Source: an uncultured Gemmatimonadales bacterium (GTDB lineage: Bacteria; Gemmatimonadota; Gemmatimonadetes; Longimicrobiales; RSA9). From it: a stretch of DNA of 64,000 bases. The translations under genes and the position numbers were made by a program. Below, piece after piece: positions 3,084 to 6,535 of the stretch (its first letter is position 1; every line of letters begins with the position of its first letter). The notes beneath the pieces are model-generated. The model ran no database searches. It worked only from the letters and a program-made list of their open reading frames with translations, and was not told the DNA's origin. The stretch is taken from NCBI GenBank assembly GCA_963741945.1, contig CAVUKA010000005.1:32001-96000 (forward strand), given 5' to 3'.

Positions 3084-4367
3084 CTAGACGGGCAGGTCGG
3101 CGCTCAGCACGTCGTTGCCGGTGTCGGTGACCAGGACGTCGTCCTCGATGCGGACGCCGATGCCCCGGAAGTGGGCGGGGGCGTCGGGATCGTGGGCGGG
3201 CACGTAGAGGCCGGGCTCCACGGTGAGCACCATCCCCGGCTGGAGGGGGCGGGGCTGGCCATGGAGGGAGTAGGTACCGACGTCGTGGACATCGAGGCCG
3301 AGCCAGTGGCTGGTCCGGTGGGGGTAGTAGCGTTTGACGGCGAGGTCGTCCTGCACCAGGTCATCGACGTCCCCGTGGAGGAGTCCGAAGTCCACCATGC
3401 CCTGGACCAGGACGCGCAGTGCGGCCTGGTGGACGTGGAGGACGGAGCCTCCGGTCCGGACCGCCTCGATGCCCGCGCGGTTGGCGGCGAGGACGACGTC
3501 GTAGACATCGCGCTGCGGGGCGGAGAACGTGCCGCCCACGGGCCAGGTGCGGGTGAGGTCGCCGTTGTAGATGCGGTGGCGCGCGCCGGCGTCGAGGAGG
3601 AGGAGGTCCCCCGCCTCCATGCGTCGATCGTTGGCGGTGTAGTGGAGGACTGTGGCGTTGGGGCCGGAGGCGGCGATGGTGGCGAAGGCGACGCCATCCG
3701 CGCCAGCGCTCCGGAACGCGGCGTCCACGGCGGCTTCCACCTCCCACTCGCCCACGCCGGGCCCGGCGGCGCCGAACCCGGTCCGGAACGCGTCCATGGT
3801 GATGCGTACGGCATCGCGGATGGCGTCGATCTCGTGGGGCTCCTTCACGAGGCGCAGCTCGTCGAGGAGGAGCCCGGGGTCGACGAGCTCCGCGGGACCG
3901 GCGCCCTTGCGCTGCCGTCCCGCTCGGCCTGCGCGGAGGGTGTCGAGCACGAGCCGCTCCACGTCAGCGCGTCCGGAGCCCAGGCGGAAGTAGAGGCGAT
4001 CACGGTCCTGGAGCATCTTCGGCAGGCGCTCGGCCAGCTCCGCGATGGGGTGGGCCGCATCGGCGCCGAATCGCTCCGTGGCCGCGTCCACGCCGCCGCG
4101 GGGTCCCGTCCAGACTTCCCGCTCGGGGTCGCGCGGGCGCACGAAGAGCGTGAACGGGGCATCGCCGCCGGGGAGGAGCACGGCCACGGCCTCGGGCTCC
4201 GTGTAGCCGGTGAGGTACCAGAGGTCGGGATCGACTACGTAGCGCAGCTCGAGGTCGCGGCCCACCATCGCCGCCGGGGCGGCGACGAGGATCATGGCGG
4301 CGTGCTCGCCGACGGTGTCCAGGACATGGTTCCGGCGGCGCTCGAAGTCGGGGATGGCTCTGGTCAT
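3084..4367 (-). CDS. pepP: Xaa-Pro aminopeptidase (M24B)
   Basis: AMP_N domain (DLWYLTG, EVWTGPR), metal motifs LLDAG..YNGDLTRT, HRTSHWLGLDVHD, TVEPGLY, GVRIEDD. Confidence 0.93.
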   Translation of the reverse strand: MTRAIPDFERRRNHVLDTVGEHAAMILVAAPAAMVGRDLELRYVVDPDLWYLTGYTEPEAVAVLLPGGDAPFTLFVRPRDPEREVWTGPRGGVDAATERFGADAAHPIAELAERLPKMLQDRDRLYFRLGSGRADVERLVLDTLRAGRAGRQRKGAGPAELVDPGLLLDELRLVKEPHEIDAIRDAVRITMDAFRTGFGAAGPGVGEWEVEAAVDAAFRSAGADGVAFATIAASGPNATVLHYTANDRRMEAGDLLLLDAGARHRIYNGDLTRTWPVGGTFSAPQRDVYDVVLAANRAGIEAVRTGGSVLHVHQAALRVLVQGMVDFGLLHGDVDDLVQDDLAVKRYYPHRTSHWLGLDVHDVGTYSLHGQPRPLQPGMVLTVEPGLYVPAHDPDAPAHFRGIGVRIEDDVLVTDTGNDVLSADLPV

Positions 4368-4418
4368 GGCGCAAAGCTAGGGTCGGGCGGTGGCGGTCAC
4401 AACGGGCGATGCGGCGCG

Positions 4419-4538
4419 CTACCCCTTCAGCACGCCCATGGGCCGGAGCCGGGCGACCTTTTTCCCGATTCCGGCCCGGTCCACCACGCTCACCACGTCC
4501 GTGGCCGTGTGGTCGATGAAGCGGATGCCGGCAGTCAT
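4419..4538 (-). pseudogene. rtcB: Archease N-terminus / RtcB C-terminus chimeric remnant (39 aa)
   Basis: MTAGIRFIDHTA (archease-like DHTA[D] start) fused in frame to TDVVSVVDRAGIGKKVARLRPMGVLKG* (RtcB-like C-terminal tail). Confidence 0.8.
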
Positions 4539-4542
4539 CCAG

Positions 4543-4770
4543 CTACCAGGGCTCGGGCTCGTCCCAGCTCTCGTCCCAGAACCGCTCCTCCTCTTCCGCG
4601 GCTTCCTGCAGATCGAGCGACTCGTCGGCCTCCACGCGACCCGTGTTCTCGATCCGCCGGATCGTGTCATCCGTGACCCGGGCGTCTCCTCGCAGGCGCG
4701 CCAGACGACGACGGCCGACCCACCACGCGCCGACCACCAGGGCGGCGCCCGCCGCGAACAGCCACGTCAT
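4543..4770 (-). CDS. Small single-pass membrane protein with acidic Trp-rich tail (75 aa)
   Basis: N-terminal hydrophobic helix, then RRR, C-terminal EEEERFWDESWDEPEPW. TGATG coupling to the upstream dksA-like gene. Confidence 0.75.
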   Translation of the reverse strand: MTWLFAAGAALVVGAWWVGRRRLARLRGDARVTDDTIRRIENTGRVEADESLDLQEAAEEEERFWDESWDEPEPW

Positions 4771-5165
4771 CAGGCCGCCGACTCCTCCCCGCCCTCCTCC
4801 TCAGCGCGGCGCTTGCACGCGATACACAGCCGGGCCCACGGCACGATCTCGAGCCGCTCCATCGCGATCTCGCCGCCGCACGCCTGGCAGGTACCGAACG
4901 CTTCGGGGTCCTTGTAGAGGCGCCGCAGCGCCTCGTCGATGGCCATGAGCTGCCGACCTTCCTGGCTCGCCAGGAGAAACTCCTTCTCCTGGTCCATGGT
5001 GTCGGTGCCCTCGTCGGCCATGTGCAGCGGGTAGTGGCTGAGGTCGCTGTCGCCCGTCTCCAGCCCCTCCTTGATCCGCTCGTCCATCTCGGCCAGCAGC
5101 TCCAGCCGGTCCTGGCGCTCCTCCAGCAGCCGCTCCCGGATCTTCTCGCGCTCTTTCTTGTTCAT
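4770..5165 (-). CDS. DksA/TraR C4 zinc-finger protein (HMAD-type coiled-coil tip)
   Basis: RBS GAGGAG, coiled coil, HMADEGTD, IDEALRRL..FGTCQAC..IAMERLEIVPWARLCIAC. The 659-aa ORF call is a spurious upstream extension. Confidence 0.92.
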   Translation of the reverse strand: MNKKEREKIRERLLEERQDRLELLAEMDERIKEGLETGDSDLSHYPLHMADEGTDTMDQEKEFLLASQEGRQLMAIDEALRRLYKDPEAFGTCQACGGEIAMERLEIVPWARLCIACKRRAEEEGGEESAA

Positions 5166-5198
5166 GCTCTCCTCGGTGTCGGGTCGCTGTTCCGAGGG

Positions 5199-5213
5199 GC
5201 AAACTACGTTCCG
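5199..5213 (-). promoter_or_regulatory. Putative sigma54 -24/-12 promoter of the dksA-like operon
   Basis: Minus strand CGGAACGTAGTTTGC (GG-N10-GC, TTGC), about 35 nt upstream of ATG 5165. Confidence 0.55.
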
Positions 5214-6535
5214 CCCCCACCGCCGGTGTCCGGCGGGACCGGCCGCACCGGGCGCCCCACGGGCGGCGCCGGGGCCGTCGTGTCCGCGGGCGCGGCCGTG
5301 TCCCGGCGAGCCGGCGTGGTGTCCCGGACGGGCGGACTGGTGTCCGGCGCGCCGCCGGGCACCGGCCGCCGGGCGGGCGGAATCCTGTCCCGTGCGGGCG
5401 GAGCGGTGTCGGGCCGGGGTGCCGTGGTGTCCCGGGCGGGCGGGGCGGTGTCCGGCGCGGCGGCCGGCCTCCCGATCGGACCGGAGGGGAGGGTATCGGG
5501 CGGCACCGTGTCGGCGCCCACCGTGTCGGCGCCCACCGTGTCGGCGGCCGGAGTGCGCGACGGCAGCGGCACGAGGAAGTCGGGGACGGGGAGACGGGTG
5601 CGCCGTGTGGTATCGAATCGGCCATCGCCGTTCGGGTCCCAGCTCTCGCGCTCGATCACGCCGTCGCCATCGAGGTCGAACAGTCGCTTGCGGACGCGGC
5701 CCCCGTAGTCGAGGGTGTAGAACCGGCCTCCGTTCTCCGTCTCCCAGACGCTGCTCAGCAGCGTCATCGCGTCCCCGGGGGCGCCGCAGCGCGCGCGTCG
5801 GCTGCCGACGTACATGAGCGCGCCGAGCGCCGGGTGGGCCGCCGGCCCCGTCTCCACCGGGTACGACGGCGGCTCGGGGGCTCGCGGCGGGTGCAGCGCG
5901 GCGCTGTCGAGCCGGAGCCTGAGCAGCCCGGTGCGCCTCGTCCGGAGGCTCCCACCGGTGAACGAATAGAAGATCATCACGTTCGTCAGCGCATCCATGG
6001 GCGGCGGTGGCGCGGGGACGAACGCGGGTACCGAATCGGTCACGGCCACGCAGTAGTAGCGGGGCAGGAGAACTTCGAGCCAGAGCGTGTCGGGGATCAT
6101 GGCCGGAAGTCGGTGCGGCTCGACGGCGCCGACGCGGGGATCGATCCGGTACGTGATCAGGGGTGAGCCGGCTTCGGTGCCCCCCGTCAACTCGCGACCA
6201 TCGGAGCTGGCGAGCCGGTATTGGAGCGGGAGCGTGAGGTCGAGGCGACCGGGACTCACGTTCTCGTCCCCGCCGTTGCGGACCGCGAGGATGAGCGGGA
6301 AGCGGGCGCCCACGTCTTGGTCCGCGTGGCTGGTGTCCGCCCACGCGGCGGGGATGTCGATGGAGTCGCTGAACTCCCCGGCCGGGGCGAGCGCCAGAAG
6401 ATCCAGCGGCGGTGCCACCCGTCCCCACTCGAGAGTGCGCAGCCCCACAACGGCGGCCACCACCACGCCCAGACCGATGATCCAGCGCGCGTCGAACTGC
6501 GGCAGGAACCGGTGGACGTAGTGACCGGTGGCCAT
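5204..6535 (-). CDS. Membrane-anchored hypothetical protein with DxDGDG motifs and Pro/Asp/Thr repeat tail
   Basis: N-terminal TM (WIIGLGVVVAAVVGL), DLDGDG/DPNGDG, repeated DT-x-PP. Start coupled to the thrC stop (TGATG). Confidence 0.75.
   Translation of the reverse strand: MATGHYVHRFLPQFDARWIIGLGVVVAAVVGLRTLEWGRVAPPLDLLALAPAGEFSDSIDIPAAWADTSHADQDVGARFPLILAVRNGGDENVSPGRLDLTLPLQYRLASSDGRELTGGTEAGSPLITYRIDPRVGAVEPHRLPAMIPDTLWLEVLLPRYYCVAVTDSVPAFVPAPPPPMDALTNVMIFYSFTGGSLRTRRTGLLRLRLDSAALHPPRAPEPPSYPVETGPAAHPALGALMYVGSRRARCGAPGDAMTLLSSVWETENGGRFYTLDYGGRVRKRLFDLDGDGVIERESWDPNGDGRFDTTRRTRLPVPDFLVPLPSRTPAADTVGADTVGADTVPPDTLPSGPIGRPAAAPDTAPPARDTTAPRPDTAPPARDRIPPARRPVPGGAPDTSPPVRDTTPARRDTAAPADTTAPAPPVGRPVRPVPPDTGGGGGT
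5504..5546. repeat. 15-bp tandem repeat (CACCGTGTCGGCGCC) about x3, encoding ADTVG
   Basis: caccgtgtcggcgcc caccgtgtcggcgcc caccgtgtcggcg read directly in the sequence. Confidence 0.85.

Follow-up and report, generated by a model that had tools for sequence, protein, structure and literature searches.

In the parts of the literature considered here, an operon of archease and rtcB is described for diverse bacteria and archaea (Desai et al., 2014, PMC3973293), and archease is reported to activate RtcB (PMC3973293; Desai et al., 2015, PMC4604427). Organisms that contain RtcB, but no archease, are also mentioned there (PMC4604427). The window, i.e., the whole stretch of 64,000 nt that was analyzed, stems from a soil or sediment bacterium of the Longimicrobiales (Gemmatimonadota) and contains at the place of such a gene pair a 39-codon ORF, the first 12 codons of which stem from archease and the last 26-27 codons of which stem from rtcB. 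This ORF is very probably a non-functional scar, which was left behind by a single deletion of about 1.8 kb. In the following, G000 denotes the genome that contains the window, and G001 a sister species of the same genus, which was assembled separately.

Organization of the locus and origin of the two halves

The scar and its neighbors comprise the following features, which are all encoded on the minus strand:

4538..4419, minus strand: 39-codon chimeric ORF, MTAGIRFIDHTATDVVSVVDRAGIGKKVARLRPMGVLKG followed by the stop codon (reading-frame translation)
4503..4538, minus strand: archease remnant, start codon and codons 2-12 (MTAGIRFIDHTA), with DHTA retained from the conserved DHTAD motif (clade archease HMM, synteny)
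4500..4502, minus strand: junction codon ACG (Thr) (archease 5' ends and rtcB 3' ends of relatives, compared codon by codon)
4419..4499, minus strand: RtcB remnant, last 26 codons (DVVSVVDRAGIGKKVARLRPMGVLKG) and the native stop codon TAG (Pfam, clade RtcB HMM, identity of the tail)
4368..4418, minus strand: spacer of 51 nt that extends from the former rtcB stop to pepP, of which about 40 nt nearest to pepP are common to G001 (blastn)
4543..4770, minus strand: small protein of 75 aa (small75), upstream flank, without a Pfam family (ORF list, Pfam search)
4770..5165, minus strand: DksA/TraR-type zinc-finger protein, upstream flank (PF01258, E 1.5e-11)
3084..4367, minus strand: PepP-like Xaa-Pro aminopeptidase (M24 and AMP_N), downstream flank (PF00557, E 6.1e-60; PF05195, E 8.4e-30)

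A preliminary description of this DNA, which gave no strand for the ORF, had let it begin 4 nt after the preceding stop codon and had named a dksA-like gene, a gene for a small protein and pepP as its neighbors. All of this is found in the window: the start codon ATG (4538-4536) is separated by CTGG from the TAG (4543-4545) of the 75-aa ORF, and the Pfam matches listed above verify the identities of the DksA/TraR and PepP proteins. A tetR gene comes after pepP. The small75 protein has an acidic C-terminus and a single hydrophobic stretch near the N-terminus. Its start codon overlaps the stop codon of dksA (4768-4772), which suggests that the two genes might be translationally coupled. Scanning of 4200-5400 for promoters and terminators yielded no site, and thus also no terminator-like site between small75 and pepP. 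Likewise, there are no tRNA genes at the scar locus or in the corresponding spacer of G001, despite the T-arm-like GGATTCGAA strings. The G+C content of the window is 71%, a value at which long open frames are common on all strands, so that an open frame of 39 codons means little by itself.

The RtcB origin of the C-terminal half, which had been proposed in the preliminary description, is borne out by separate HMM searches. RtcB (PF01139) is the sole Pfam family found with the ORF, residues 13-39 of which match positions 400-426 of the 426 model positions (16.3 bits, E 0.0058). This score is lower than the Pfam cut-off of 27 bits, as expected, because the piece consists of only 27 residues. 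With a clade-specific HMM, which was built from 14 RtcB sequences of relatives, residues 12-39 match positions 451-478 of 478 with 36.9 bits (E 9e-14, Z=1), while none of 500 shuffled sequences reached this score and the best of them had 3.5 bits. The match to the RtcB of G021 amounts to 84.6% over 26 aa (tblastn; residues 458-483 of 483), and at the two nearest loci, L049 and L050, 24 of the 26 residues are identical to the intact RtcB. The tblastn search was run with relaxed settings and yielded numerous chance matches, so that its results were considered solely for the RtcB tail and the archease start. The variant DVVSVVD of the scar is shared with the RtcB proteins of L050 and G015. Because they contain it without a gap, an alternative alignment of the tail, in which a VVD unit would have been lost, was rejected. 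The sole changes at positions that are invariant in 12 distinct RtcB tails of relatives are an Ala to Thr and an Arg to Lys exchange, the latter with the rare codon AAA. The collinearity up to the extreme C-terminus and the stop codon, together with the location at the place of rtcB in relatives, reveals the descent of codons 13/14-39 from rtcB.

The N-terminal half had been assigned to archease, and this part of the proposal stands on the level of the clade, whereas the Pfam archease model (PF01951) alone reported no match for the ORF at E values up to 10. With an HMM built from the archeases of 14 relatives, residues 2-12 (TAGIRFIDHTA) match model positions 2-12 with 6.8 bits, a score that was reached by none of 1000 shuffled sequences. 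The assignment is derived from this HMM of the clade, from the conserved motif, and from synteny. The motif x-x-(D/E)HTAD is in register with the start codon, and its final D is replaced at the junction of the scar, which identifies codons 1-12 as descendants of an archease gene. In addition, archease follows directly after small75 at three loci of relatives (L051, L052, L053), i.e., at the very place where the scar starts. At the sequence level, the resemblance of both halves to archease and RtcB exceeds chance.

Resemblance of the ends does not make the ORF a member of either functional family. The archease family is defined by a domain of 136 positions and a cut-off of 25 bits, and the intact archease of G021 scores 83.9 bits. 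In the case of RtcB the whole domain of about 426 positions is needed, as in the intact orthologue of G021 (586.7 bits, positions 1-426). The catalytic body of RtcB holds the metal- and GMP-binding His, Cys, and Asp residues. It is missing from the scar, in which about 455 of the roughly 482 residues typical of the relatives are absent and 26-27 remain. Neither fragment is predicted to work, because the archease part is smaller than a tenth of the domain and the RtcB part is devoid of the whole catalytic body.

Gene order in relatives and absence of both genes from the genome

The nearest relatives outside of the genus contain the order dksA - small protein - (nfuN) - archease - rtcB - pepP - tetR, in agreement with the proposal that an archease-rtcB pair was once present. 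The clearest case is G005, in which a PALP enzyme (thrC-like), a 443-aa protein, dksA, small75, archease, rtcB, pepP and tetR follow one another, and which thus has the order of the window plus the two missing genes. In G021 and G019 the order is dksA-small75-nfuN-archease-rtcB-pepP. Eleven further loci were examined for synteny, two of which are contigs of genomes already named (L051 of G005 and L054 of G021). Eight of the further loci have a PepP identity of at least 64%, and seven of these are informative, as L055 begins inside pepP. In all seven, which stem from Longimicrobiales MAGs outside of the genus, rtcB is located directly upstream of pepP, and wherever the contig extends as far as small75 (five of five loci, L050-L054), rtcB is preceded by archease, which in turn follows small75 or nfuN. 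Archease and rtcB also precede pepP in G002 and in G039, which belongs to another family of the order. The segment from the HTA of archease to codon -26 of RtcB has a length of 1,782-1,842 nt in five relatives, compared to 3 nt in the window.

Twelve other loci were compared, and among them only G002 has the archease-rtcB pair upstream of pepP, with two contigs being too short to tell. In this group the order is small75-pepP in G012, dksA-pepP in G013, and small75-nfuN-pepP in G006. No remnant of archease or rtcB was found in any of the 12 at an E value of 1e-4, and therefore the window is the sole locus seen with a two-sided scar. Several other loci of the group contain 1.2-1.8 kb of further sequence. 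In five of the genomes (G017, G010, G009, G018, and G024) about 1.2-1.7 kb is located between nfuN and pepP, in which none of the query proteins had a match and RtcB and archease were absent at E 1e-4. The small75 orthologues adjoin dksA in G005, G019, G021, G006, G012, G002, and L050-L053, and the dksA-small75 pair is kept across the family.

Some further variation was noticed at this locus. A gene for an Nfu_N-domain protein (PF08712, E 9e-25; L035 766-1035 of G021) lies between small75 and archease in G021, G019, and L050, and between small75 and pepP in G006, and is absent from the window, G001, G005, L052, and L053. This presence or absence among relatives marks the locus as a hot spot at which genes are gained and lost. 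The spacer between rtcB and pepP of G005 has about 700 nt and contains a 16-nt tandem repeat with 5.8 copies and 97% matches (L031 4025-4117).

Four of the genomes that were used are unpublished (G016, G017, G020, and G026). They are included in the counts of genomes with RtcB and archease, and they account for three of the RtcB tails and for two of the 12 loci (G017, G020). Three of the 14 sequences of the archease HMM (L013, L017, L022) also stem from them, as do, probably, some of the sequences of the RtcB HMM. The core claims are independent of them: the synteny is seen in G005, G019, G021, G002, G039, and L049-L056, the two halves are identified by Pfam and tblastn, and both genes are absent from G000 and G001.

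No other copy of the lost genes is present in the genome. A six-frame search of G000 (8 contigs, 4.09 Mb, 96.73% complete) yielded no match to RtcB (PF01139), archease (PF01951), or RtcA (PF01137). Of the 41 genomes of the order that were searched (G000 included), 29 contain RtcB and 15 contain archease, and within the family without G000 the fractions are 21/24 and 14/24, respectively.

Reality of the junction and its possible formation

The preliminary description had left the choice between a recent loss of RNA repair and a collapse during assembly, and had asked for reads across the fusion. One public sequencing run, X1, contains 57% of the sampled words of 4100-4900, and it is the sole run with most of this stretch; no RNA run was among those listed for it. 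Its Logan contig of 426 nt covers 4107-4532 and crosses the junction with 0 differences and 0 gaps; these are contig-level data with a depth of 5.4, and X1 may be the source sample of the genome, in which case the assembler and not an independent sample is tested. None of the loose ends of X1 that are listed falls at 4497-4505 (102 more exist). The 27-nt junction had no match in the JGI metagenome contigs that were scanned, and a second population with the scar is not known.

Three soil runs (X2, X5, X6) contain small shares of the stretch, which are conserved parts from other organisms. Their contigs match only 4416-4460 of the window, i.e., the RtcB tail, and then run into an intact-looking RtcB (...DVVDGAGIGR), while one contig of X2 joins 4265 to 4419. 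These matches are consistent with rtcB-pepP neighbors in other soil organisms.

If the assembly had collapsed, intact archease and rtcB genes would still be present in the organism and the assembler would have joined their ends wrongly. The genome is indeed an assembly of several contigs (8), and the one run with most of the stretch has the shallow depth and the possibly shared origin mentioned above. But a collapse is extremely improbable, because the separately built X1 contig passes through the junction without any difference. In relatives, no more than 9-11 nt are common to the two breakpoints, which is much too short for a collapse at a repeat, and local repeats that are long enough to mislead an assembler were not found near the junction; therefore, a collapse would have no substrate. 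Moreover, no fragment of RtcB or archease occurs elsewhere in the nearly complete genome, and the separately assembled G001 lacks both genes at the locus as well as genome-wide. Of the two options that had been offered, the real loss is thus supported and the assembly collapse is not.

The pentamer CACGG had been pointed out as occurring twice at the junction, and two copies are indeed present (minus strand CA-CACGG-C-CACGG-AC; plus strand CCGTG-G-CCGTG at 4499-4509). They are not significant, as a 5-mer is repeated at an offset of 5-9 in 9.2% of the comparable positions of the window. CACGG was rejected as a signature of the deletion for this reason, and also because a deletion at a microhomology would leave one copy, not two. 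The duplication is a by-product of the junction codon ACG.

A cleaner candidate for a microhomology is a triplet of codons. Relatives have ...DHT-A-D-V-G... in archease and ...KDV-A-D-V-V-(D/S)VVD... in RtcB, so that both genes carry GCS GAC GTG (Ala-Asp-Val) at the breakpoints. In G021, ACG GCG GAC GTG GGC of archease compares to GTG GCG GAC GTG GTC of rtcB, with 11 shared nt (G GCG GAC GTG G). The version GCC GAC GTG is present in rtcB of G002, G039, and L056, and in archease of L051 and L053. Because the breakpoints coincide with the Ala-Asp-Val triplet in both parent genes, illegitimate recombination at short homologies or replication slippage seems to be the likeliest mechanism. A clean deletion between the triplet repeats predicts DHTADVVSVVD, but the window has DHTA-T-DVVSVVD and thus one extra ACG codon, so that the proposed microhomology alone does not account for the junction. 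The extra codon could be explained by a clean junction and a later addition of 3 nt, or by a blunt join (HTA|ADVV) and one transition from GCG to ACG.

Taken together, the following course of events is proposed. In an ancestor, dksA, the gene of the small protein, archease, rtcB and pepP would have followed one another as in an operon. A single deletion of about 1.8 kb would then have removed everything from archease codon 13 through about rtcB codon -27. Codons 1-12 of archease, with the start codon, would thereby have been joined in the same reading frame to the final 26-27 rtcB codons and their native stop. The additional change that produced ACG may have happened during or after the short-homology event. 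The genome would thereby have lost its only RtcB-type RNA ligase together with the activator. The central proposal of the preliminary description, that most of an archease-rtcB pair was deleted and both ends were fused, agrees with the HMM matches of the two halves, with the gene order in relatives, with the lack of further copies in the genome, and with the contig that crosses the junction.

Age of the deletion and comparison with known systems

The comparison with the sister species G001 allows an estimate of the age of the deletion. The dS values between G000 and G001 are 0.52 for pepP (425 codons), 0.52 for dksA, and 0.85 for small75. Under neutral drift over half of this distance (0.26-0.42 changes per site), about 10-15 of the 26 codons of the RtcB tail are expected to be unchanged. 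For 24 or more unchanged codons the probability is 7e-5 to 3e-8, an estimate into which few sites and a crude dS entered. Because the RtcB tail is too well preserved for neutral decay since the two species separated, the deletion is probably recent in comparison with this separation, and the term "recent loss" used in the preliminary description fits this estimate. The preservation would reflect either a recent loss of constraint or purifying selection on the ORF.

In G001, RtcB and archease are also absent, at the locus and genome-wide. The ATG 4 nt after the small75 stop is kept, and it opens a 66-codon ORF with a faintly archease-like start (MSAAITSLHHPGGVG; MSAAITSLHH, compared to MTAGIRFIDH in the window). 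This ORF reaches 2.5 bits with the archease HMM, a score that was also reached by 13 of 1000 shuffled sequences. An RtcB remnant was not detected with the clade RtcB HMM (-1.1 bits, reached by 19 of 500 shuffled sequences), and Pfam reported nothing for the 66 aa at E values up to 10. The filling of 186 nt is, from about codon 20 onwards, a REP-like palindromic element, which recurs at several places in G001 with 83-93% identity. Homology between the window and G001 resumes at window position 4407, about 10 nt after the stop codon of the scar (blastn). A global alignment of the two spacers gave z = 2.1, a value that results from the shared ends, and was rejected, as the fillings are not alignable. 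As to the REP-like element itself, its units end with ...GGCGGATTCGAA, often occur as two in tandem, and are located just after stop codons. Copies are found at L025 1371-1485 (G001:C6, between small75 and pepP), L129, and L130, and a weak copy is present in the own genome (G000:C1:1338987-1339022).

These differences indicate, with moderate confidence, that the loss in G001 was a separate or a further deletion. Alternatively, one old deletion might have taken place in the common ancestor of both species, and the RtcB tail of G001 might later have been overwritten by the insertion of the REP-like element. Both species lack the two genes, both have an ATG 4 nt after small75 followed by a weakly archease-like start, and the element begins near codon 20 of the G001 ORF, all of which speaks for this scenario. 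It is nevertheless unlikely, as neutral decay over the whole time since the split would not have left the tail in the window so intact, and as G001 has no RtcB signal. A weak hint at a different breakpoint comes from HHPGGVG of G001, which aligns with DHTADVG of archease past the breakpoint of the window. If the losses were separate, loss would have been favored in this lineage, and not merely tolerated. The far-reaching version, in which loss at the same locus was favored in both species and, in addition, the in-frame scar was selected to preserve the expression of pepP, is quite improbable.

Selection could also have acted on the ORF itself, which might encode a small protein or might, as a "non-polar" bridge in frame, lead ribosomes from small75 to the native rtcB stop and keep pepP expressed. 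The open frame with its ATG close to the small75 stop and its native stop 51 nt ahead of pepP, the mere two differences among 26 residues to the nearest orthologues, and the lack of a terminator-like site from small75 to pepP would fit to a function. But an in-frame outcome is expected in one of three cases anyhow, and at the high G+C content 39 open codons mean little. An equivalent ORF is not present in G001, where most of the 66-codon ORF that begins at this start codon consists of a dispersed REP-like element, and the Ala to Thr and Arg to Lys exchanges hit positions that are invariant in 12 RtcB tails of relatives, as expected without constraint. A retained function is thus very unlikely, and a non-functional scar is the preferred reading.

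At base-pair resolution, the locus shows how one Longimicrobiales lineage lost its sole RtcB-type RNA ligase along with the activator of this enzyme, while most relatives have kept RtcB. Genome annotations should mark the 39-aa ORF as a remnant instead of a gene, and should score the organism as being without RtcB-dependent RNA repair. The scar opens no new question, but it is a clean natural example of an in-frame fusion of two genes and may help to date gene loss.

Organisms that contain RtcB without archease, as they are described in the part of the literature cited at the outset (PMC4604427), differ from the present case, in which the genome contains neither of the two genes. The resemblance to the archease-RtcB "tRNA splicing operon" is found in the relatives, where archease lies directly upstream of rtcB on one strand (G005, G019, G021, G039, and L050-L053), whereas the window contains 12 archease and 26-27 rtcB codons as a remnant and not a working operon. 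In-frame deletion scars and pseudogene remnants arise by short-homology (illegitimate) recombination in bacterial genomes. The scar is like these in that a single deletion joined two nearby sites of one strand, both ends are recognizable, the flanks are intact, and relatives have a short shared sequence at the breakpoints. It is unlike them in that the junction contains one extra codon, and that two different genes were fused and not the two ends of one. All in all, the scar represents gene loss of an ordinary, if tidy, kind.
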